Counted from the stretch's first letter, positions 5,617 through 64,000 are shown. The stretch is DNA of 64,000 nt from a bacterium (GCA_043810165.1 JBDROJ010000027.1:36974-100973); one strand, 5' to 3'. The notes: a model not told the origin generated them from the letters alone. A program made the numbers and translations.

Positions 5617-5858
5617 ATTATCGGATTATATTAATTATTACGATCCTTGTGTTTGTCCTCTGATTTGGGACAAGCAGTGTCGCATAAATAACTAATATAA
5701 TCCTATAATAAAATACCCTGAATTTTCAGAGTATTTTACAAAATCATCTTCAGATCTCCTTAATTAACCTGTAATTTAAAGATTAGTTAAGGGGATGGAA
5801 GCTGAAGATGGGCAAAAGAACAATCTGCTTCCGTAGATTAGGCACGACGGAGAATCCG

Positions 5859-6071
5859 TCATACACCCCAGACGCGCGGGTTGGGACAGAGGACCTCGAT
5901 CCTCGTAGAACTGAAGGTTCGCAAAAGACTTAAACATTCATTTGAACCACGTTCTTGAACTGGAGGTTTTCTGAACATGGATCGAATACGGCAAATATTT
6001 GCCACGCCTTGACGACACTTCTCGCAGTTGATCGGGAGTAAATCCCGAGGCGGATCGGCGACTTGTTTCAT
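5859..6071 (-). CDS. small Cys-containing hypothetical ORF in an antisense GC-rich islet (possible gene fragment)
   Basis: 70-aa ORF in a ~50% GC segment. Overlaps the upstream small ORF by 4 nt (ATGA). Contains CEKC...C. No family recognised. Confidence 0.25.
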   Translation of the reverse strand: MKQVADPPRDLLPINCEKCRQGVANICRIRSMFRKPPVQERGSNECLSLLRTFSSTRIEVLCPNPRVWGV

Positions 6072-6235
6072 GAATTTGTCTTCTCCTTTTTCCTCTTGTT
6101 GATCCTCAAGTTCACTGGATGATGTAGATCATAACGCCTGGTGTTTGGCAGGATATAGCGCTTAAAGAACCAGACCAGCGCATTCATCATCGCCTTGGTT
6201 GAATCTACCATGAAATCTGGTAGCCTAGGTATCAT
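6068..6235 (-). CDS. small basic hypothetical ORF in an antisense GC-rich islet
   Basis: The start was placed at the Met with ideal SD spacing (AAGGAGGAATGTCCATG) rather than the track start at 6292, which would abut the iscU start codon. Basic C-terminus NLRINKRKKEK. Confidence 0.3.
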   Translation of the reverse strand: MIPRLPDFMVDSTKAMMNALVWFFKRYILPNTRRYDLHHPVNLRINKRKKEKTNS

Positions 6236-6294
6236 GGACATTCCTCCTTTTTTGACAAACACCATTTTAATATATTTTTCAGACAAAGTCAATT

Positions 6295-7829: not shown

Positions 7830-9359
7830 ATGAAAGAAAAATATTATTTAACCACAGCCATCCCTTATGCTAATGCTGATCCACACATTGGATTTGCCTT
7901 GGAATTACTTTATACAGATGTAATGGCCAGATACCAAAGGCTATTGGGCAAAGATGTGTATTTTCTTACTGGCACAGATGAACATGGACAAAAAATGTAT
8001 AAAACTGCTATAGAAAAGGGCAAGGATGTGTATGAATATGCTTCATTAAAATCAGCTGTGTTTCAAAATCTGGCTGATCGGTGGAATATCACTAATAACG
8101 ATTTTATTCGCACCACCGAGGAACGGCACATGAACAAAGCGCAAAAATTTTGGGATATAGCAAATGCTAATGGCGATATTTATCAAAAAGAGTACACCGG
8201 GCATTATTGCGTTGGCTGTGAGGCTTTTAAAACAGAAAAAGACCTGGTTGATGGCAGATGTGTCAACCATAATAAAGAACCTGAAATAATTTCAGAAAAA
8301 AATTATTTTTTTCGCTTATCAAAATACCAACTGCAGATAGAAAAATTATTCAAGGAAAATCCTGATTTTGTTTTCCCAAAATCAAAATATAACGAAATGT
8401 TGCAGGTTTTAAAAGGCGGGCTGGAAGATGTAAGCATTTCTCGTTCCAAAAAAAAAATGCCTTGGGGAGTGCCATTGCCAGGAGATGACAGCCAGGTGAT
8501 GTATGTTTGGTTTGACGCCTTGACTAATTATATTACAGCTTTGGGCTGGCAATCGGATGATGAAACATTATTTAAAAAATATTGGCCTGCTGACGCGCAT
8601 ATAATCGGCAAAGATGTCAGTCGTTTTCATTCGTTATTATGGCCGGCCATGCTTATGTCTGTTGGCTTGGAACTGCCAAAAAAAATAGCTGTGCATGATT
8701 TTATGACTTTAAACGGCCAAAAAATAAGCAAGAGTTTGGGCAATGTGATCAATCCTTTAGATTTAATAGATCAATACCCGTTGGAAGCACTGCGGTATTT
8801 TTTCATGAGAGAGATACCTTTTGATCATGATGGTGATTTTTCTGATGAAAAATTTCAAGAGCGATATAATGCGGATTTAGCCAATGGCATCGGCAATCTA
8901 TGCAATCGCGTCCTGGTAATGATTGAAAAATATTCTGACGGCACTGTGCCCGGAGTAAATCAAATTTACAATGGCATGATTGAAACTTTAAATCAAGAAA
9001 TTTGGTCAAACTATAATCAGGCCATGGAAAATTTTGCTTTTAATCACGCTTTAGAGACTTGCTGGAAATTTGTGTCCTATTGCGATCAATTAATTTCCGA
9101 TAAACAACCCTGGGTGCTTATCAAGCAAGGCAAAGCTGGAGAGGTTAATGACTTATTACATCATTTGGCGGAAGCTCTGCGCCATATAGGCGTAATGATC
9201 TGGCCGATCATGCCTGAAACAGCTGAAAAAATATTTATCCAGCTTGGGTTAAATGCTAAACAAGAACTAGCCAAACCGCTTGATGAATTAAAAAATTGGG
9301 TACAATTAACTGTTGGTAATAAAATTAATAGGGGAGAGGCATTATTCCCAAGAATTTAA
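7830..9359 (+). CDS. metG: methionyl-tRNA synthetase (short form)
   Basis: HIGH-region variant PYANADPHIGFA and the KMSKS motif KISKSLGN. Cys cluster CVGCEAFK...C for the zinc knuckle. Confidence 0.9.
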   Translation: MKEKYYLTTAIPYANADPHIGFALELLYTDVMARYQRLLGKDVYFLTGTDEHGQKMYKTAIEKGKDVYEYASLKSAVFQNLADRWNITNNDFIRTTEERHMNKAQKFWDIANANGDIYQKEYTGHYCVGCEAFKTEKDLVDGRCVNHNKEPEIISEKNYFFRLSKYQLQIEKLFKENPDFVFPKSKYNEMLQVLKGGLEDVSISRSKKKMPWGVPLPGDDSQVMYVWFDALTNYITALGWQSDDETLFKKYWPADAHIIGKDVSRFHSLLWPAMLMSVGLELPKKIAVHDFMTLNGQKISKSLGNVINPLDLIDQYPLEALRYFFMREIPFDHDGDFSDEKFQERYNADLANGIGNLCNRVLVMIEKYSDGTVPGVNQIYNGMIETLNQEIWSNYNQAMENFAFNHALETCWKFVSYCDQLISDKQPWVLIKQGKAGEVNDLLHHLAEALRHIGVMIWPIMPETAEKIFIQLGLNAKQELAKPLDELKNWVQLTVGNKINRGEALFPRI

Positions 9360-9370
9360 TTAAAGATAGT

Positions 9371-9457
9371 TCAGAGTCTTATACTAAGTTTCCGAAACAT
9401 TCCGCAACTCGACGGGAGGAGATGCGAGGACGTTGAAAAGTTAGTATAAGACTCTGA
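9371..9457 (+). other. long perfect 17-bp inverted repeat (TCAGAGTCTTATACTAA / TTAGTATAAGACTCTGA) enclosing a ~53-nt GC-rich structured loop
   Basis: Seen directly in the sequence between metG and cvpA. It is followed by an A-run, not a T-run, so it is not a canonical + strand terminator. Confidence 0.5.
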
Positions 9458-9473
9458 AAAAAAATAAAATTTT

Positions 9474-9998
9474 ATGTCATATTTTGATCTTAGCCTGGTT
9501 GCCATTGTAATCGGCTTTGGGTTATTTGGCCTCTGGTTTGGCTTGGTGCATACATTCGGTTCTTTGTTGGGAACTGCAGTGGGCTTATTTTTAGCCAGCC
9601 GATATTATGAGCCAATGGCCAACTGGCTTGCATCGGTTACGGGTTGGACAGGAAATTTTTCCAAGGTTCTGATGTTTATCATCGCCTTTGTCCTTATTAC
9701 CCGCTTGGTTGGTTTTGTATTTTGGATATTGGAAAAAACTTTGGGCATTTTTACTAAATTGCCGTTTATACGGGGCTTTAATCATTTGTTAGGTGCTTTA
9801 TTCGGCGTTTTTGAAGGAATAATTTTAATTGGCGCAAGTCTATATTTTATTGCACGCTTTCCATTGGGACAAAATTTTATGAATTCTTTAGGCAGTTCCA
9901 ACTTAGCACCTGTTCTAGTTAACCCTGTTAAGATTCTTATGCCAGTAATTCCTGATGCTATTAAATTTTTACAAAGTACAGTGCAGAGTATATTTTAA
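9474..9998 (+). CDS. cvpA: CvpA-family membrane protein
   Basis: Four TM segments. N-terminus DLSLVAIVIGFGLFGLWFGLVHTFGSLLG matches the CvpA (colicin V production) pattern. Confidence 0.65.
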   Translation: MSYFDLSLVAIVIGFGLFGLWFGLVHTFGSLLGTAVGLFLASRYYEPMANWLASVTGWTGNFSKVLMFIIAFVLITRLVGFVFWILEKTLGIFTKLPFIRGFNHLLGALFGVFEGIILIGASLYFIARFPLGQNFMNSLGSSNLAPVLVNPVKILMPVIPDAIKFLQSTVQSIF

Positions 9999-12230: not shown

Positions 12231-12464
<234 letters not shown>

Positions 12465-12476
12465 TTTGATTAGTCT

Positions 12477-12510
12477 GATCTAAAAAGTCAGACTTATTTA
12501 AACTATTTTA
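12477..12510 (+). terminator. attenuator/terminator-like hairpin after atpE
   Basis: AGTCTGAtctaaaaaGTCAGACT followed by a T-rich tract. Confidence 0.4.
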
Positions 12511-12520
12511 TAATTTTTAT

Positions 12521-12814
12521 ATGGAGGAAGAAAAAAATATCAAACAAGATACTAAAGAAAATACTGACAAAATCAAAAAAAGCGGTAGACTAAGATTAGT
12601 TTTGATTATAATAGGAATTTTAATAGTATTAAGTTTAATTTATCGTGTAAATAATTATTGGAAATACAAAAAAATAGAGCGGGCTGTTCAAAAACAAACT
12701 GAATTGTTGGAAAAACAAGGCAAAGAAATACAAGCCAATTATCTAAAACAGATAAACGAAGTGCAACAGAATATTTTGGAACAACAACAAAAATTGGAAG
12801 AAGCCCAAAAATAA
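12521..12814 (+). CDS. small TM + coiled-coil protein (possible divergent b'-like stalk subunit or lineage-specific insert)
   Basis: One N-terminal TM (LVLIIIGILIVLSLIY) then a Q/E/K-rich coiled coil. Located between atpE and atpF. Confidence 0.4.
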   Translation: MEEEKNIKQDTKENTDKIKKSGRLRLVLIIIGILIVLSLIYRVNNYWKYKKIERAVQKQTELLEKQGKEIQANYLKQINEVQQNILEQQQKLEEAQK

Positions 12815-12840
12815 TAACTATAAATTATAATAAAATAAAT

Positions 12841-13812: not shown

Positions 13813-14331
13813 ATGTTAGAACAACAAGAAAAAGTTAAATTATCTGACCAAGAATTGACGGACTTGATTAAGGAAATCTCTTTTGATGCCGAACGATGCA
13901 TAATGGTCATCAAAAGCGATTTGGGAATACTAAAAGAAATCCTGACAGGAAAATTAGCATCGAGCCGAGAATCTAACAAAGAAAGGGATGCTGAATTTAA
14001 TGATAAAAGAAGGACAAATATCGTAGAAACAGCCAAAAAATTATTAAGTAAAGTACAAGAAAAAGTTAAATACTTAAATAAAAAAACTAACTACGCCGGA
14101 GTTGAAGAAATATTAGAAATAGAAAAAAATATATTAGAATTTTTAACCAAAGCCCTCTCTGATATAGAAATAGAAAACGTGGATATAATTGCAAAAAATT
14201 ATCGCACCGGAAAAGAACAAGATATTTGCCAAGATTTAGATCAGGTAGATGAATTGATTACAGATTTTGAAATAACCAGCCTGCATCAGAGATATTTTGA
14301 ATTACAATCTAAACAAAATAAAAATAAATAA
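13813..14331 (+). CDS. hypothetical protein inserted between atpH and atpA (172 aa)
   Basis: ORF tightly packed in the operon (3-nt gap). Charged, helical composition. No ATP synthase subunit matches. Confidence 0.45.
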   Translation: MLEQQEKVKLSDQELTDLIKEISFDAERCIMVIKSDLGILKEILTGKLASSRESNKERDAEFNDKRRTNIVETAKKLLSKVQEKVKYLNKKTNYAGVEEILEIEKNILEFLTKALSDIEIENVDIIAKNYRTGKEQDICQDLDQVDELITDFEITSLHQRYFELQSKQNKNK

Positions 14332-14341
14332 ATAAAGAACT

Positions 14342-15841
14342 ATGTCTAGCATTAATAAAATAGTTGAAGAATTGAAAAAAAATATTTCCTCTTTTGAAAA
14401 GCAAGTGGAAGTTGAAGAGCTCGGCCAAGTTGTTGAAGTAGGGGATGGTATTGCCCGCATGAGCGGTCTAAACAAATGCCAATATAATGAAATTCTGGAG
14501 TTTCCCGGCGAAACTTTCGGTGTGGCTTTGAATTTGGAAGAAGAAACCATCGGAGCTGTGATTTTAGGTGAATTTAAGCATATTAAAGAAGGCGATGCTG
14601 TTAAGCGCACAGGTCGTATTTTATCTGTGCCGGTGGGCGACCAATTTATAGGCAGGGTTATCAATCCTTTAGGACAAACCGTTGACGGCGGTAAAGAAAT
14701 TAAGACCAAAGAATTTTACCCAATTGAAAAAATTGCTCCCGGCGTTATGAGCCGTGAACCTGTAAGTCAACCTGTGCAAACAGGTATTAAGGCCATTGAT
14801 TCCATGATTCCAATCGGGCGTGGCCAGCGCGAATTGATAATCGGAGACCGCCAGACAGGCAAAACAGCCGTGGCTGTTGATACAATTATAAACCAAAAAG
14901 GACAGGACATGATCTGTATTTATGTTGCCGTGGGGCAGAAAGAATCTAAAGTTGCGCGCACCGTGGCCAAATTAAAAGAATTCGGCGCCATGGAATATAC
15001 AGTAGTAGTCAAAGCCAGCGCTTCAGAGCCGGCTCCGTTATTATACATCGCCCCTTATGCCGGCGTGGCCTTGGCTGAATATTTTATGGACAAGGGCAAA
15101 GATGTTTTGATTATTTATGATGATTTAAGCAAACAAGCTTGGGCGTACCGTGAAATGTCATTGTTGTTGCGCCGTCCGCCAGGCCGTGAAGCTTATCCAG
15201 GCGATGTATTTTACCTGCATTCACGCCTATTAGAACGCGCTTGTCGCAGAAACAAAGAACATGGCGGCGGTTCTATTACTGCTTTGCCAATTATTGAAAC
15301 TCAAGCCAGCGACGTGACAGCTTATATTCCAACCAATGTAATTTCAATTACTGATGGACAAATTTTCTTGGAAAGCGATCTATTCTATCGTGGTATTAGA
15401 CCAGCTTTGAACGTTGGCATTTCCGTATCCCGCGTAGGTGGTTCTGCTCAAATTAAAGGCATGAAAAAAGTGGCCGGCAAATTAAAATTAAATATGGCGC
15501 AGTTCAGAGAATTGGAAGCTTTTGCTCAATTTGCCAGCGACCTGGATCCGGAAACAAAAAAGCAAATTGACTTGGGCCAAAGACTAGTGGAAATTCTAAA
15601 ACAACCTCAGTACCAACCTGTGCCGGTAGCCAATCAAGTGGCCGTGATTTATGCGGTATCCAATAGCTTTGCAAGCGAAGTGGAAGTAAAAAATATGCAG
15701 GAATGGGAAATTAAATTTCATAATTATTTCAACAAGTCCAAATCTCTTTTATTGGATAAAATTGGAAGAGGAGAATGGGATGATAAAATAGAAGATGAAC
15801 TCAAAAGCGCTTGCGAAGAATTTGTTAAACAGAGTAAGTAA
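14342..15841 (+). CDS. atpA: F0F1 ATP synthase subunit alpha
   Basis: Walker [10 protein letters not shown] and other alpha-specific regions ([13 protein letters not shown]). Confidence 0.95.
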
Positions 15842-15843
15842 TT

Positions 15844-16797
15844 ATGCCCGTAAATACAAAAGCAATACAAACCAGAATCAAATCGGTCAAAAATACCCGC
15901 AAGATTACCAAAGCAATGGAAATGGTAGCGGCCGCCAAGATGAGAAAAGCCGTGCAAGTGGCTGTGGACACGCGTACCTATGCTACGCTGGCTTGGAATT
16001 TGCTGGTTAATTTGTCCAAAACCCAAGAGGTGAAAATTCCTTTATTGGATGTGCGCCCGGTTAAACGCCTGTTAGTGGTTTTGATCACATCTAATCGCGG
16101 TTTGTGTGGCAGTTTTAATTCTAATATTATCAAAAAAACAGCTGAACAATTGGCCAATCCAGTTAATATCAGCAAACAAAGAATACAAGGCCATGATGTT
16201 GCTCCAAGTCAAGAATTAGAAGTGGATGTGATTGGTGTTGGCAAAAAAGGAGCAAGTTTTGCAAAAAAAATGGGATATAACCTGATATCATCCTTTGGTG
16301 ATATGACTGATACGCCTAAGATGGAAGACGCTCTATTAATCAGCAAAATTTTAATTGAAGAATATACCAATAAAAAATATGATAAAGTAGTAGTTGCTTA
16401 TACTGATTTTCAATCCAGTATTAATCAGGTGGCCAAATTAAGACAGGTTTTACCTGTTTCTGAAGCTGACTTGGAAAAAATGCTCGGTGAGCTTGGATCT
16501 GACAAAGATCGTGGGGAGTCAGAGAATAAAACAGAACTAGATGATTATTTATTCGAACCAAACAAACTAGAAGTTTTAAAAACTATTCTGCCAAGATTGG
16601 TGGAAACGCAAATTTATCAAACATTATTGGAATCAGCCGCTTCTGAACACAGCTCTCGCATGTTGGCAATGAGAAATGCATCTGACGCGGCAGATGATAT
16701 GATTAAAGAATTAAATCTTAATTTTAATAAAGCGCGGCAGGCCGCCATAACTCAGGAAATTTCCGAGATTGTGGGCGGTGCGGCCGCTTTAGAATAA
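15844..16797 (+). CDS. atpG: F0F1 ATP synthase subunit gamma
   Basis: N-terminus IKSVKNTRKITKAMEMVAAAKMRKA and C-terminus NKARQAAITQEISEIVGGAAAL. Confidence 0.9.
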   Translation: MPVNTKAIQTRIKSVKNTRKITKAMEMVAAAKMRKAVQVAVDTRTYATLAWNLLVNLSKTQEVKIPLLDVRPVKRLLVVLITSNRGLCGSFNSNIIKKTAEQLANPVNISKQRIQGHDVAPSQELEVDVIGVGKKGASFAKKMGYNLISSFGDMTDTPKMEDALLISKILIEEYTNKKYDKVVVAYTDFQSSINQVAKLRQVLPVSEADLEKMLGELGSDKDRGESENKTELDDYLFEPNKLEVLKTILPRLVETQIYQTLLESAASEHSSRMLAMRNASDAADDMIKELNLNFNKARQAAITQEISEIVGGAAALE

Positions 16798-16802
16798 AGC
16801 AT

Positions 16803-18417
<1,615 letters not shown>

Positions 18418-18431
18418 AAATATAATTTTAG

Positions 18432-18522
18432 ACTGTCATCCCGACCGAGCGTAGCGAGTGGAGGGATCTCAGTATAACACTAAGATCCCTGAACTCGGCT
18501 TTGTCCAGCTCAGGATGACAAT
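18432..18522. repeat. GC-rich nested palindromic repeat element (family 2 variant)
   Basis: CTGTCATCCCGACCGAGCGTAGCGAG...GGATGACAAT, with an internal GGGATCT/AGATCCC palindrome. A near-identical half-copy lies at 46392-46437. Confidence 0.75.
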
Positions 18523-18525
18523 AAT

Positions 18526-18963
18526 ATGGAAAAAACCCTTAAATTTAAAATTATAACCCCGGAAAAAATCGTTTATGAAGACGATATTTTTCAGGTTACA
18601 ATTCCTACATCGGATGGTGAAATTACTGTATTGGCTAATCATATTCCTTTAGTATCGGTTTTAAAAGCAGGGGATTTGATTATAAAAGACAAAAATGATC
18701 AACATCACATTGCTATTGCCGGTGGCTTTTTAGAAGTTAAATCCAATAATCAAATCATTATTTTGGCAGATAATGCTGAACGAGCTGAAGAAATTGATTT
18801 GGAACGAGCCGAAGAAGCTAGAAAACGTGCCGAAAAACAAATGAAACAAGCTAAGTCAACTGAAGACATTGACTTTGCCAAACTTCAAGGTATAATAGAT
18901 AGAGAAATGAACAGAATTAGGGTTGGAAAAAAGTATAAAAAATTACCTAAAGCAAGATCATGA
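18526..18963 (+). CDS. atpC: F0F1 ATP synthase subunit epsilon
   Basis: N-terminal beta-sandwich pattern (ITPEKIVYEDDIFQVTIPTSDGEITVLANHIPLVSVL) and a C-terminal helical hairpin. Confidence 0.85.
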   Translation: MEKTLKFKIITPEKIVYEDDIFQVTIPTSDGEITVLANHIPLVSVLKAGDLIIKDKNDQHHIAIAGGFLEVKSNNQIIILADNAERAEEIDLERAEEARKRAEKQMKQAKSTEDIDFAKLQGIIDREMNRIRVGKKYKKLPKARS

Positions 18964-19007
18964 AGTTAGATGCAATTACAAAATATTTAAATATATTACC
19001 ACCAATG

Positions 19008-19083
19008 CAGTCTTGATTGATTGTTTTGTGTTTTTTATACCTTCTTAAAAATAATAAAACAGTCAATCAAGACTGTTTTTTTG
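19008..19083 (+). terminator. rho-independent terminator of the atp operon
   Basis: 13-bp perfect stem CAGTCTTGATTGA / TCAATCAAGACTG followed by TTTTTTTT. Confidence 0.6.
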
Positions 19084-19133
19084 TTCTTTCGCTAACCCAA
19101 CACCATGTGGTGCTGGACAAGGAGGTAGATACA

Positions 19134-19502
19134 ATGGGAACCAACAACGTGCTTATCATAGGTGGAGGAGAAAAGGGGAATGTCATAGCTAGATTGCTGG
19201 CCAGCCAAAATTGGTTGGACAATATTCACCTGGTTGAAGAAACAACTGACTTGGCTTCTAATCTTAGGGCCGAATTAGGACAAACAATCCAAATTCACTC
19301 TAACTGTATAGAAATACCAACCAATATCCGAATAGTTTATGCAATAAGCGAACCAGTGGGCATGGACGCTATTAGACAAAAGATAGCCGAAAAAATTAAC
19401 GGGAAAACATTGATTGTTTGGGTAGCTCAAACTACTAATCTAAAGCTTTTACCACTTTTCCTCAAAAGCCAACTGGCAAATCTCTACGAAAGATCTATCT
19501 AA
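19134..19502 (+). CDS. Rossmann-fold NAD(P)-binding domain protein (TrkA-N/KTN-like), 122 aa
   Basis: The start was moved to the Met preceded by AAGGAGG. GxGxxG motif VLIIGGGEKGNVIARLL. The track ORF start at 19017 lies inside the terminator hairpin. Confidence 0.5.
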   Translation: MGTNNVLIIGGGEKGNVIARLLASQNWLDNIHLVEETTDLASNLRAELGQTIQIHSNCIEIPTNIRIVYAISEPVGMDAIRQKIAEKINGKTLIVWVAQTTNLKLLPLFLKSQLANLYERSI

Positions 19503-43474: not shown

Positions 43475-43492
43475 TATTAAGTTAGTATTATT

Positions 43493-43650
43493 CTGCCGTT
43501 GCGAGGAGTCAGGGTGTTATTGTCATTGCAAGCCTAAGCGACCCGCCTGCCAACGCCTGAAGTCAGAGGGCAATGACGGGCAGGAGCAATCTCATACTTA
43601 CTGTAGCAACGAGACTGCTCCGTCGCTACGCTCCTCGCAATGACGATGCT
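43493..43650. repeat. compound GC-rich palindromic repeat element (family 1, nested inverted repeats)
   Basis: Outer arms CGTTGCGAGGAG / CTCCTCGCAATGACG, with inner arms GTCATTGCAAGCC / GGGCAATGAC. Contains the 63-codon ORF 43452..43643, typical of repeat-derived pseudo-ORFs. Confidence 0.75.
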
Positions 43651-43679
43651 AATTTAAAAAGATTGGTATGATTTCAATA

Positions 43680-54434: not shown

Positions 54435-54551
54435 AAATTTATCTTATTATACACTAAAATTGCTAAAAAGTCAAGTTTTGGCCATTGCTATCCAAATTAA
54501 ATTGTGCTATTCTAATATCTATTAAAGCCATACCAAGTTTTTTAAATTAAT

Positions 54552-54679
54552 CCTGTCATTGCGAGCGTAAGTGTTACTGTCATTGCGAGCGTAGCGAAGC
54601 AATCTCGTCGGTTCTAGTAATAACGAGATTGCTTCGCTACGCTCGCAATGACAAAAAAAACACGGCTCGCAATGACAGA
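54552..54679. repeat. GC-rich nested palindromic repeat element (family 1, full compound copy)
   Basis: Inner perfect 31-bp inverted repeat TGTCATTGCGAGCGTAGCGAAGCAATCTCGT / ACGAGATTGCTTCGCTACGCTCGCAATGACA, flanked by outer arms CTGTCATTGCGAGCG / GGCTCGCAATGACAG. Confidence 0.8.
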
Positions 54680-54714
54680 ATTAATACACCAAATCATCTG
54701 GTATAGAAAAAAAT

Positions 54715-55354: not shown

Positions 55355-55749
55355 GGGGGTGTCGGGCTTCGACAGGAATATTTGTTATCACCGGCATATT
55401 GAGCTGGCTCCATGCTCATAAATCTCTGGGGCGCAAACACAAATGCAAATTTGTACACAAAAGCAAAAACAGCTGTTGCACAAATGTTCAATAGCTACAA
55501 CTTTGCTCCGGCAATGGCTTAATTGCCTATGCCCATCGCGCTGGCCATACCTAGTAACCAGTTGCGGTGCCACTTACCAGGCGTAGGTTAAAAATCGTTC
55601 TGATAGATTTTTAACTGAAAGCAAATATTAGATAGCTATTTAAGTTTTGGTTCTCTTCCTACTTAATTAGCAAATTAAACAAGAGAACTAAATATGTAGA
55701 AGGTATTAACAAAATTATCTGCACGCGGGTTCAACTCCCGCCACCTCCA
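55355..55749 (+). ncRNA. ssrA: tmRNA (ssrA)
   Basis: The 5' end GGGGGUGUCGGGCUUCGACAGG matches the tmRNA 5' consensus (GGGGCUGAUUCUGGAUUCGACGGG). The 3' end GCGGGUUCAACUCCCGCC-ACCUCCA-C forms the T-arm and acceptor stem. The 7-bp acceptor pairing (5' GGGGGUG with 3' CACCUCC) includes one G-U pair, as in E. coli. An internal reading frame ends ...NFAPAMA-UAA. Located immediately downstream of smpB. Confidence 0.75.
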
Positions 55750-55768
55750 CTAAAGGTATAAACATTAT

Positions 55769-58588: not shown

Positions 58589-60469
58589 ATGAATAACGAA
58601 CATGAAATAGTTATATTGGATTTTGGCTCCCAATATACACATCTTATTGCCCGTCGTATTCGCGAATTGGGCTTGGTTTCGCATATTTATGATAATGATA
58701 CGCCTGTAAGCCAATTAGATAATGCAGTTGGCATAATACTATCCGGAGGACCTAAAAGCGTGCTGAACCAACAGCGACTTGATTATGATCCAAGACTTTT
58801 TGATTTAAATCTGCCAATTTTGGGAATGTGCTATGGACATCAATTAATTACTCAACATTTTGGCGGACAAGTTGTGTCCGGAAAAAGCAGAGAATACGGC
58901 CTGGCCAAAATAAAAACAAAGCCCTGCTCCCTGTTTGAACAAGTGGACTCGCAAACTCAAGTATGGATGAGCCATGGAGATCATGTAGCCGAACTGCCTC
59001 CGGGATTTGAATCTATTGCTATTACTAATAACGATGCCAACACGGCCATGGCCAATACGGATAAAAATATCTACAGCCTGCAATTTCATCCGGAAGTAAC
59101 TCATACAACTCAAGGCAAACAGATGCTGTCCAATTTCATATTTAACATCTGTAAAGCTGAAAGAAATTGGACTACAAATAAAATGTTGGAACAAATTCAA
59201 TCTGAAATTAAACAACAAGCTGGATATAAAAATATTTTTCTCTTAATTAGCGGTGGAGTTGATTCCACGGTTTGTTTTGCTTTATTAGAAAAAACCTTGG
59301 GCAAAAAACGAGTCTATGGCCTGCATATTGATCATGGTTTGATGCGTTTAAATGAATCGGCACAAGTTAATCAAGCTTTGAAAAATATCGGATTAGATGA
59401 CCTTCATATTTACAATGCTGAAAAGCAATATTTGCATGCTCTTGACGGCGTGGCCGATCCTGAACAAAAGCGAAAAATTATTGGAGATTTGTTTTTAGAC
59501 ATAGCTGGCCAGGTTATGGTTAAAAATGGCATGGATGACGGGCAATGGCTATTGGGCCAAGGCACAATTTATCCGGACACCGTTGAATCTGGCGGTACCA
59601 AACAAGCTGATTTAATCAAAACTCATCATAATCGTGTTCCTCGAGTGCAAGAAATGATTGCTCAAGGAAAAATCATTGAACCAATCAGAGAATTGTACAA
59701 AGACGAAGTGCGTCAAATCGGCCTTAAACTAGGATTGCCAAAAAATCTGCTTTATCGCCATCCTTTTCCTGGCCCTGGTTTGGGGATTAGATGTTTGTGT
59801 TCAGATGGCTTATCATTGTCAGCCCGAAGGGCGATGCAATCCCGTCTTATCCCTGTCATTGCGAGCGTAAGCGAAGCAAGCCCGTTATTACAGAACCAAC
59901 AGGATTGCTTCGCTTACGCTCGCAATGACAAAGAAAAACAGACTCTCAATAACAAATTTTACAAACTACCTATTAAATCAGTGGGTGTGCAAGGTGATGA
60001 GCGTTCTTATGCTTATCCGGCGTTAATAAATAAACTTGATTGGGAAGAACTGCGCGTTATTGCACCGCAAATTACCAATCAGCATCAAGACATTAATCGC
60101 GTTTTAGTTTTGGTTTCAGGTAATCCAGATAAAATTGCACAATCAGATTTAAAGCCTGCATATATAACAAAACAAAGGCTTGAACTTTTGCGCCAAATTG
60201 ATCACATAGTGAATAAGAATATTCTTAACAATCCCGATTGTTCTCACATATGGCAATTGCCCGTAGTAATGATTCCTTTTGGTTATAATAAGAAAGAAAC
60301 CGTCGTCTTAAGACCGGTTGAATCAGAAGAAGCCATGACTGTATCTTGGGCGCAAATTTCCGATGGTATTTTAAATGAAATTATACAGGAGATTAACCGG
60401 CTTGAAGCAGTTGATTTTATCATGTATGATATTACCAATAAACCACCAGGTACAATTGAGTGGGAATGA
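58589..60469 (+). CDS. guaA: GMP synthase (glutamine-hydrolysing) carrying an in-frame palindromic-element insertion
   Basis: GATase domain (GMCYGHQL). PP-loop SGGVDSTV. C-terminal dimerisation region (KSVGVQGDERSY). At 626 aa it is ~100 aa longer than typical, and includes the repeat-encoded segment PVIASVSEASPLLQNQQDCFAYARNDKEKQ. Confidence 0.9.
   Translation: MNNEHEIVILDFGSQYTHLIARRIRELGLVSHIYDNDTPVSQLDNAVGIILSGGPKSVLNQQRLDYDPRLFDLNLPILGMCYGHQLITQHFGGQVVSGKSREYGLAKIKTKPCSLFEQVDSQTQVWMSHGDHVAELPPGFESIAITNNDANTAMANTDKNIYSLQFHPEVTHTTQGKQMLSNFIFNICKAERNWTTNKMLEQIQSEIKQQAGYKNIFLLISGGVDSTVCFALLEKTLGKKRVYGLHIDHGLMRLNESAQVNQALKNIGLDDLHIYNAEKQYLHALDGVADPEQKRKIIGDLFLDIAGQVMVKNGMDDGQWLLGQGTIYPDTVESGGTKQADLIKTHHNRVPRVQEMIAQGKIIEPIRELYKDEVRQIGLKLGLPKNLLYRHPFPGPGLGIRCLCSDGLSLSARRAMQSRLIPVIASVSEASPLLQNQQDCFAYARNDKEKQTLNNKFYKLPIKSVGVQGDERSYAYPALINKLDWEELRVIAPQITNQHQDINRVLVLVSGNPDKIAQSDLKPAYITKQRLELLRQIDHIVNKNILNNPDCSHIWQLPVVMIPFGYNKKETVVLRPVESEEAMTVSWAQISDGILNEIIQEINRLEAVDFIMYDITNKPPGTIEWE
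59852..59931. repeat. palindromic repeat element (family 1) inserted in frame within guaA
   Basis: CTGTCATTGCGAGCGTAAGCGAAGCAA ... TTGCTTCGCTTACGCTCGCAATGACAA with a 25-nt loop. The guaA ORF reads through without a stop. Confidence 0.8.
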
Positions 60470-62851: not shown

Positions 62852-63121
62852 TTACTTATCCCAGAACTCTTCTGCCTCTTTCTCTAATTTCTCTAATCTA
62901 TCATAATAGTCTGGAAATTCATTCAAATGCGCCAGAGCTATCTTGCCGGTCATAAGCGGTTCGTCTCCGGTAACATCTGTTTTTGGATCCCTGGTGCCAT
63001 GCTCTAACTCAACATTTACCCCCATCCAAAATTGGTTGAGATCAAATTTTTCATTATTAAAATCCATTTCCAATTTCTTGGATATTTCTTCTGCTTCTTG
63101 CAAACTAAACTTTTCCTTCAT
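62852..63121 (-). CDS. small acidic hypothetical protein
   Basis: 89-aa ORF (FWMGVNVELEHG...). No family recognised. Confidence 0.4.
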   Translation of the reverse strand: MKEKFSLQEAEEISKKLEMDFNNEKFDLNQFWMGVNVELEHGTRDPKTDVTGDEPLMTGKIALAHLNEFPDYYDRLEKLEKEAEEFWDK

Positions 63122-63244
63122 ATATATTGTATTAAATTAAATATTAAAATATTGCTTAGATCCTTTAATCATTATACACCTCTTAAACAAATAAAAGAAA
63201 TAAAGAAGCCGTATAACCCAAAAATAAATCAGGTTATACGGCAA

Positions 63245-63535
63245 TGTGGGCTTTAATCTGAGTTCGCGATGCGTCGCTGGGCTACTTTTCACCATGTGAT
63301 AAATGCAACTAGGACCGAAGTCCTTGGTTGCAAGTAAAGACTCGCACGGATCTAACGCATTGGCTAGCGCAGACTCTGCCCGGCTCAGCGGACCTAAAGG
63401 CCAGTTGGCCACCACCCCACAGGTGACTTACTGAGTACTGGGCTCCACGTATGGAGCCTAGTCAGGATTGTACCCGAGCCCACGAGTACTTTTCTCTTGA
63501 CTCCAAGAGTCAAAGAGATTCCAGAGGGGTCAATA
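63245..63535 (+). other. GC-rich (~55%) non-coding segment densely packed with hairpins; candidate structured ncRNA or clustered palindromic repeats
   Basis: No ORF of 60 aa or longer on the + strand. The single 92-aa ORF on the - strand has low-complexity composition. Consecutive stems: GGACCGAAGUCC, GGCCAGUUGGCC, GGCUCCACGUAUGGAGCC, the long-range UACUGGGCUC...GAGCCCA pair, and a preceding 11-bp hairpin GCCGTATAACC/GGTTATACGGC at 63209-63243. Confidence 0.45.
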
Positions 63536-63669
63536 TATATAATGGCACTTATTAGCAATATTTGTCAATTATTATAATTATATTTTAATAATTTTATCCT
63601 GAAAAATAAGCCTAGATCTTGACTTTATCATAGTTCTGTGATTAACTTAAGACTCAAAGGAGGAACAGG

Positions 63670-63879
63670 ATGTTTGATAATCAATCACTGAATCAGGCCG
63701 TGATCTTCGGGATCATGGGCGAGCACTTTGTCAGCCGTAAGATAGTGCTGGCAGTCAATCTCTTTGAGCGTGTGATCTTCTGCATACCCAACTGGTTGAG
63801 AGAAGATCTCCGCAGGAGGGAAATTCTCACCAATATGGTGGCTGAAAAAATGAAGAAGCCAATCGAGTTCAAACACTGA
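63670..63879 (+). CDS. small hypothetical ORF with strong SD (AAAGGAGGAACAGGATG)
   Basis: 69-aa ORF in a moderately GC-rich segment. Followed by two hairpins at ~63905-63935 and ~63948-63975. Confidence 0.3.
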   Translation: MFDNQSLNQAVIFGIMGEHFVSRKIVLAVNLFERVIFCIPNWLREDLRRREILTNMVAEKMKKPIEFKH

Positions 63880-64000
63880 GGTCGTGAAAAGCGACTGACC
63901 ATACCTGCCCCGGTAATCATCGGGGCAGGTGTATCTATACTAAATTCTAAAACCCCCCGATATAAATCGAGGGGTTAATATTTTTAATTATTTTTTCTTT

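Follow-up and report, generated by a model that had tools for sequence, protein, structure and literature searches.

A candidate minus-strand gene for an orphan structured RNA in a GC-rich intergenic segment of a Patescibacteria genome

The DNA considered here, referred to below as the window, is a stretch of 64,000 nt from the genome of a member of the Patescibacteria (CPR); beyond the identical protein, the best relatives of its RlmN are 72–79% identical and come from organisms named Parcubacteria, Magasanikbacteria or Patescibacteria. Close to the right end of the window, a GC-rich segment (63238–63533) lies between a divergent 69-aa ORFan on the plus strand (ABIH87_03000, 63670–63879; hereafter ORF69) and three genes of the minus strand, namely a DUF5661 gene (63121–62852), cspA, which has a perfect promoter of its own (62783–62755), and rlmN. 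The GC content of the segment is 53.0%, as compared with 36.2% for the 64-kb window and with 25.5% and 30.5% for the flanks (63000–63199 and 63500–63699, respectively), which bears out the initial annotation, where an islet of about 55% GC amid intergenic DNA of 25–30% GC had been described. ORF69 is itself 46% GC, with a GC3 of 0.63 and coding periodicity, and two hairpins are found on its 3′ side (63903–63930 and 63951–63976).

The same annotation saw no plausible ORF in the segment, and this is confirmed by stops in all six frames, by the GC content of the codon positions and by the lack of a period-3 signal. Codon-position GC is flat (0.53/0.56/0.56), as it is in the tmRNA of the window (0.42 at all three positions), while the ORFs used for comparison are mostly uneven in this respect, ORF69 giving for example 0.47/0.27/0.63. 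The mean local period-3 power of the segment is 0.58, against 0.63 for the tmRNA, 0.79 ± 0.23 for shuffled sequences and 1.2–1.9 for ORFs, and no residual codon periodicity appears even in local windows of 96 nt. The ORFs that can be drawn across the segment match no Pfam or PHROG family, and searches of these ORFs and/or the neighbouring genes against Pfam, PHROGs, PADLOC and NCBIfam gave no meaningful match. With the longest of them (92 aa) as a query against 1.84 billion proteins, phmmer returned two matches, both of them due to chance, with scores raised by tandem repeats of the target protein. Three ORFs across the segment were looked up and none of them is deposited as a protein; the adjoining ORF69 is. 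A degraded protein-coding gene, an alternative that the initial annotation had proposed to check by translated search, is thus not supported: there is neither codon periodicity nor, chance phmmer matches apart, any protein homology. Both the non-coding nature of the segment and its strong structure, to which we now turn, are supported by the data.

The chain of hairpins listed in the initial annotation is present in full, including the stem at 63208–63242, whose perfect 11-nt arms lie at 63208–63218 and 63232–63242, the GCAAC/GTTGC stem (63305–63331), within which the hairpin GGACCGAAGTCC is located (63312–63323), and a long-range TGGGCTC/GAGCCCA pair (63439–63445 with 63476–63482). Adoption of the latter costs about 7 kcal/mol more than the best fold. 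Further hairpins are formed by GGCCAGTTGGCC (63399–63410) and GGCTCCACGTATGGAGCC (63441–63458), and inverted repeats join 63437–63447 to 63452–63462 and, as repeat I7, 63497–63503 to 63507–63513. An additional long-range pair of 7 bp, absent from the first list, connects 63246–63252 with 63477–63483.

Read on the minus strand, these elements fall between a promoter-like site and a terminator. The putative sigma-70-like promoter (63568–63539) comprises a −35 TTGACA (63568–63563), an 18-nt spacer, a TG and a −10 CATTAT (63544–63539); it matches the consensus at 10 of 12 positions and predicts a start near 63532. Such a site is weak evidence when taken alone, since promoter-like sites are no commoner in this AT-rich stretch (four found) than in shuffled sequences (4.1 expected). 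The intrinsic terminator (63242–63195) consists of a 14-bp stem (GCCGUAUAACCUGA/UUGGGUUAUACGGC) with a 7-nt loop, followed by UUCUUUAUUUCUU, and its hairpin (63242–63208) has a free energy of −20.9 kcal/mol and a pair probability of 0.99. It is on the minus strand that two G–U pairs and one A–U pair extend the stem from 11 to 14 bp, and both the G–U pairs and the U-tract are available on that strand only. No minus-strand ORF lies between the promoter-like site and the terminator. The arrangement by which a stand-alone sRNA or ncRNA gene is recognized, a promoter and a Rho-independent terminator with no ORF between them, is thus found here, the promoter being a match to the consensus only. Transcription of the minus strand would start from this promoter and stop at the strong terminator, yielding a predicted non-coding transcript of about 335 nt (63198–63532).

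More generally, no minus-strand ORF is found upstream of the terminator, and the hairpin at 63951–63976, which looks like a bidirectional terminator (as judged by eye, no tool having scored it), could shield the unit against transcription from the right. Any transcript ending at the terminator should therefore start within roughly 63243–63950. Fold energy gives no strand preference (−126.5 versus −125.3 kcal/mol for the minus and plus strands). However, the two most probable hairpins (0.98–1.00) carry C(UUCG)G and UACG loops on the minus strand, as against CGAA and CGUA on the plus strand, and the agreement of these UNCG loops with the terminator, its G–U pairs and U-tract, and with the promoter-like site makes the minus strand the likely one.

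The predicted RNA would comprise a 5′ hairpin, a 7-bp helix P1, a core of about 235 nt rich in hairpins, two of them UNCG-capped, and the terminator hairpin, the order of elements being H0, P1, H2, H3, H4, the H5 domain, H6 and the terminator. H0 (63493–63518; UCUCUUUGACUC UUG GAGUCAAGAGA, with one bulged U and pair probabilities of 0.94–0.99) comes directly after the predicted start. The 5′ strand of P1, GUGGGCU (63477–63483), is 100% complementary to its 3′ strand, AGCCCAC (63246–63252), over 7 bp with a mean probability of 0.90, and their pairing closes the core. H2 (63476–63463) can form on the minus strand only, owing to G–U pairs. H3 (63437–63462; ACU-A-GGCUCCA [UACG] UGGAGCC-C-AGU, pair probability 1.00) corresponds to inverted repeat I3 and carries its UNCG-type tetraloop at 63451–63448. 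The arm H4 (63384–63435), found in both the MFE and the MEA structures, is formed by CUCAG (63435–63431) and CUGAG (63388–63384) and encloses internal loops and a GGCC-AACU-GGCC hairpin (63410–63399). Further along, H5 (63305–63331; GCAAC-CA-AGGAC [UUCG] GUCCU-A-GUUGC, pair probability 0.98) has a C(UUCG)G tetraloop at 63319–63316, and H6 (63266–63277; GCGA [CGCA] UCGC) has a pair probability of about 0.75. The interior of this fold is ambiguous, since pairing CUGAG (63388–63384) with a second CUCAG (63262–63258) gives a nearly isoenergetic topology (−125.9 versus −126.4 kcal/mol, a difference of 0.5), and, with no homologue found in the collections scanned, all these helices are predictions from a single sequence.

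On the minus strand, the stretch of about 350 nt has an MFE of −126.5 kcal/mol (z = −4.3) and, on the plus strand, of −125.3 kcal/mol (z = −6.0), no shuffled sequence being as good in either case. When the 5′ hairpin and the terminator are removed, the core still reaches z = −3.0, a value that none of 200 shuffles equalled. The tmRNA, which serves as an in-genome positive control for fold and GC content, has z = −4.0, so that in degree of structure the segment equals a genuine RNA gene of its own genome. It does not stand alone in the window, however: among 189 tiles of equal length it ranks ninth by z (top 5%; background −0.74 ± 1.8), and of the eight tiles with equal or better values, those inspected hold REP-like palindromes or long hairpins. 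The stability of the fold thus moderately exceeds chance. By the base composition of paired as compared with unpaired positions, the segment is not distinguished from mRNA controls.

Together, these observations make a well-delimited orphan ncRNA gene plausible. We consider it about as likely as not that the segment is a stand-alone minus-strand gene whose product, some 335 nt long, is a stable and highly structured ncRNA of no catalogued family, probably trans-acting and perhaps acquired with the ORFan. Once folded, such an RNA would most likely function in trans, for instance by providing a scaffold for proteins to bind, and not as a leader. Of the identities offered in the initial annotation, an unclassified structured RNA is still the best reading, the segment being non-coding, strongly structured and without a family in Rfam 15. 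By contrast, a cis-regulatory leader for the ORF at 63670 is contradicted by strand, since the ORF is on the plus strand and divergent, while the minus strand is indicated by the UNCG loops as well as by the terminator and the promoter-like site. What speaks for a ribozyme or an OLE-like RNA is size and structure, and nothing further.

The surroundings of the segment bear on its origin. The segment RNA and ORF69 form a GC-rich block of about 770 bp bracketed by terminator hairpins. ORF69 retrieves only itself among 5.8 billion proteins, matches no family and yields nothing in tblastn searches of phages and plasmids; the AlphaFold model, a single long helix with a pTM of 0.33, is uninformative. 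Islands of 46–57% GC in this 36% GC genome are found in the window at 67–526, 773–1244, 5789–6250 and 63658–63960. They hold ORFs of 169, 125, 70, 74 and 69 aa, with clear coding periodicity in those of 169, 125 and 69 aa (GC3 0.63–0.67), and no significant Pfam, PHROG, PADLOC or NCBIfam match was obtained for the island ORFs. GC-rich islands with unassigned small ORFs are also carried by relatives, at 14273–18115 of locus L001 and at 12368–12815 and 15908–19163 of locus L002. Such islands look like the result of recurrent foreign gene uptake in this lineage, and the block made up of the RNA and the ORFan likewise looks horizontally acquired; the RNA may have arrived together with ORF69. At 53% GC, the segment lies above the tmRNA of the genome (42%) and level with the ORFan islands, so that its GC excess may, at least in part, be due to a foreign origin and not to selection on structure. 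At the left end of the window, a long hairpin with arms GATCGGCTCC...GGAGCCGATC (731–791) separates two of the GC-rich ORFan genes; read on the minus strand it resembles a terminator, and it partly explains a tile z of −6.6.

Homologues of the segment were sought first of all in relatives. The loci compared, totalling about 180 kb, were L001–L004 and L120–L127 for RlmN (72–79% identity) and L005/L006 and L144 for DUF5661; gene order around the two genes is not conserved among them, and nhmmer, also when run with --max, found no match to the segment. In JGI metagenomes, the pattern GAGCCCAGTACTCAG N{30,60} CTGAGCC had no matches and TAAGTCRYYYGTGGGGTGGT two chance matches only. Likewise, GTGAAAAGTAG N{10,40} CAGATTAAAG gave seven chance matches only in GTDB species genomes, seven patterns gave chance matches only in IMG/VR viral contigs, and blastn of the segment against phage and plasmid collections gave none. 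The missing matches are weak evidence of absence, because the scans of metagenomes, genomes and viral contigs rely on exact k-mers or gapped patterns, to which relatives lacking the exact words are invisible, and because the closest RlmN and DUF5661 proteins are only about 79% and 84% identical, respectively. In one of the relatives, a member of the Magasanikbacteria (L121), a gene-free stretch of 1.77 kb was noted upstream of rlmN (8023–9792); it contains an apparent uncalled ORF of about 440 codons starting at 8318 (8318–9640), with the P-loop motif GKAGTGKST, and is not an RNA gene.

A foreign origin would also be compatible with the segment being non-functional, that is, the relic of a GC-rich cassette, such as a dead promoter–ORF–terminator unit, in which the hairpins are incidental and unselected. 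This is a minor but real possibility. It would account for a GC content of about 53% that matches the ORFan islands at 67–1244, for the adjoining GC-rich ORFan, for the islands of small unassigned ORFs in relatives and for the lack of segment homologues in the scans, and it is in keeping with a z-score that is not unique in the window. It does not, however, sit well with a fold significantly more stable than dinucleotide shuffles, with UNCG loops on precisely the two best hairpins and with boundaries set by a promoter-like site on one side and a terminator on the other. Nor is there any residue of a dead ORF, in the form of codon periodicity within 96-nt windows or of protein similarity.

At the other extreme, it is tempting to speculate that the segment is the first member of a new class of structured ncRNAs of about 300 nt, carried with an ORFan on a mobile GC-rich cassette in Patescibacteria and working as an RNP scaffold or a ribozyme. 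We regard this as unlikely at present; if true, the segment would be the founder of that class of large RNAs.

It is also quite unlikely that the segment instead serves the DUF5661 gene (63121–62852) in cis as a 5′ leader, be it a riboswitch, an attenuator or a thermosensor, with the hairpin at 63242–63208 as its expression platform. The orientation is shared and the terminator ends up about 87 nt upstream of the DUF5661 ATG. In the interval, only a lone TATAAT (63176–63171) without a good −35 is found, one that went uncalled in the promoter scan, and read-through could therefore be the main source of DUF5661 transcription. In terminating riboswitch and attenuator leaders, too, a P1-closed multi-helix domain with an intrinsic terminator on its 3′ side precedes a gene of the same orientation, and a cold-shock gene follows DUF5661. 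In contrast to such leaders, however, the segment has no alternative antiterminator: the best upstream duplexes with either arm of the terminator reach only −11 to −14 kcal/mol and are interrupted, as compared with −20.9 kcal/mol for the terminator, and no antiterminator or anti-sequestor pairing rivals it. Unlike them, too, it is not conserved upstream of homologous genes, since the DUF5661 genes of L005/L006 (84% identical protein), L120 and L144, which represent three independent contexts, are preceded by no comparable element. An aptamer of 290 nt would be unusually large, far above typical size, and no Rfam riboswitch or leader matches the segment. The gap between the terminator and DUF5661 (63137–63186) contains, besides the TATAAT, which is perfect, a possible uORF of 11 codons (MIKGSKQYFNI, 63172–63137) after AAGAGGTG; the two may be due to chance in AT-rich DNA, or represent a leader peptide or promoter of DUF5661.

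A third type of function to be considered is that of an RNA belonging to a mobile or defence element (a guide or omega-type RNA, a retron-like or RT-associated RNA, or an antisense antitoxin), whose partner would be ORF69 or a gene to the right of position 64000. A compact block of foreign composition, in which an RNA and an ORFan diverge between bracketing terminators, is suggestive of such an element, as are the other GC-rich ORFan islands of the lineage. Nevertheless, this assignment is very unlikely, given that the neighbours match no transposase, RT, Cas or defence family, that the locus shows no repeats or terminal inverted repeats and that nothing was retrieved from phage, plasmid or viral collections. 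Pairing with a partner mRNA fares no better: antisense complementarity of the segment RNA to the ORF69 or DUF5661 mRNAs does not exceed that to shuffled sequences. A type I toxin–antitoxin antisense RNA was rejected for this reason, its duplex energy with the ORF69 mRNA being no better than with shuffled targets.

Known RNA families were assessed with Rfam 15, whose coverage includes RNase P, SRP and 6S RNAs, riboswitches, group I and II introns and large ornate RNAs. The whole window was compared at gathering thresholds and matched the tmRNA alone; 63050–63700 (651 nt) was compared on both strands at E ≤ 10 with permissive filters and returned noise, the best score being 20 bits versus a gathering score of 43. 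The tmRNA (55355–55752; 134 bits, 42% GC, with a long predicted tag peptide, ANLYTKAKTAVAQMFNSYNFAPAMA) is the sole gene identified in the window by Rfam or ARAGORN, neither of which finds a tRNA or tmRNA at the segment; the window has no tRNAs. The failure of RNase P RNA and SRP RNA to fit, which the initial annotation had reported, is corroborated by the lack of a covariance-model match for either. For RNase P RNA, the P4 strands GAGGAAAGUCC and ACAGAAnnnGGCUUA are absent from both strands, and the segment contains neither CR-I/CR-V sequences nor P4-type complementarity; the stretches after H3 and before the 3′ strand of P1 are both CUCAG, identical and not complementary, and therefore form no P4-type pairing. 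For SRP RNA, the domain IV GGAA/AGCA loop motif (GGAAGCAGC-type) is absent. As to 6S RNA, it has no covariance-model match either, and the fold predicted here branches from a junction into several arms, in place of the rod with a large central bubble expected of that family. A very divergent member of one of these three families, missed by the covariance models, would be in keeping with a GC-enriched segment of this size whose core is closed by P1, and no rnpB, ffs or ssrS is found in the window; yet the blank at E ≤ 10 even with permissive filters, the missing family motifs and the non-syntenic, ORFan-flanked location make this highly improbable.

The weakest alternative, also raised in the initial annotation, is a cluster of REP- or MITE-like palindromes akin to those of the other GC islets; it is scarcely credible and, within the window, effectively refuted by sequence comparison. 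A high density of hairpins and a high GC content are common to the segment and the islets at 43477–43660 and 54540–54680, but the islets have words of 11–22 nt in common and consist of long perfect palindromes, whereas the hairpins of the segment all differ from each other and the segment has only chance 10–12-mers in common with the rest of the window. Consistently, nhmmer and blastn-short of the segment against the 64-kb window retrieve the segment itself plus chance words, with no related copies. The palindromes are of some interest in their own right. The family (..GTCATTGCGAGCGTAGCGAAGCAATCTCG.. and its reverse complement) is also represented at 59855–59931, and its copy at 54550–54655 is a long near-perfect palindrome with a tile z of −10. 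The guaA ORF (58589–60469, 626 aa) harbours one copy, which reads in frame as ..SLSARRAMQSRLIPVIASVSEASPLLQNQQDCFAYARNDK.., suggesting that a housekeeping gene has received an insertion without loss of its reading frame. A different structured spot is found at 9364–9455, between the ORFs 7830–9359 and 9474–9998: a 15-bp stem (AGAGTCTTATACTAA ... TTAGTATAAGACTCT) with a GC-richer loop of about 60 nt, a tile z of −6.8 and no Rfam match. Here, too, a small structured RNA may be encoded, or the stem may serve as a regulatory hairpin.

A literature search for ncRNAs, structured RNAs or RNase P RNA of Patescibacteria/CPR retrieved no relevant paper. Given this, and the tiny genomes of these bacteria, a large structured RNA without a family is a useful lead, and so is its link with GC-rich ORFan islands, which have seemingly accumulated in the lineage. 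As it stands, the segment is of a familiar kind, the GC-rich intergenic ncRNA candidate, and neither opens nor closes a question as yet. Its value is that of a well-delimited target, with strand, ends and helices specified, and it is a single-sequence candidate, not yet a discovery.

The stand-alone ncRNA gene proposed here can be set beside two kinds of known systems. The stable housekeeping RNAs, RNase P RNA, tmRNA, 6S RNA and long SRP RNA, are like it 300–400 nt long, with 5′ and 3′ parts that close a multi-helix core, and the segment further resembles them in having its own promoter-like site and terminator, UNCG-capped hairpins and a z-score similar to that of tmRNA. It differs from them in that it has no covariance-model match and no family-specific motifs, occupies a variable, ORFan-flanked spot and was not detected in the approximately 180 kb from relatives that surround their RlmN and DUF5661 genes. 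The other kind comprises the RNAs recovered from GC-rich regions of AT-rich genomes, the route by which the HgcC–G RNAs of AT-rich archaea were discovered. In AT-rich bacterial genomes, GC-rich intergenic regions (GC-IGRs) are used systematically to find structured ncRNA candidates, as set out in three reports (PMC6429828, PMC8632094, PMC11109978). The published motifs comprise multiple homologues with covariation, whereas the segment is a single sequence, and the GC excess is weaker evidence in the present case than for those motifs because it equals the GC content of the adjacent foreign ORFan genes. In other respects the segment is like the GC-IGR candidates, sharing with them a GC content far above that of its surroundings, the absence of an ORF, a dense and stable structure and no assigned function.
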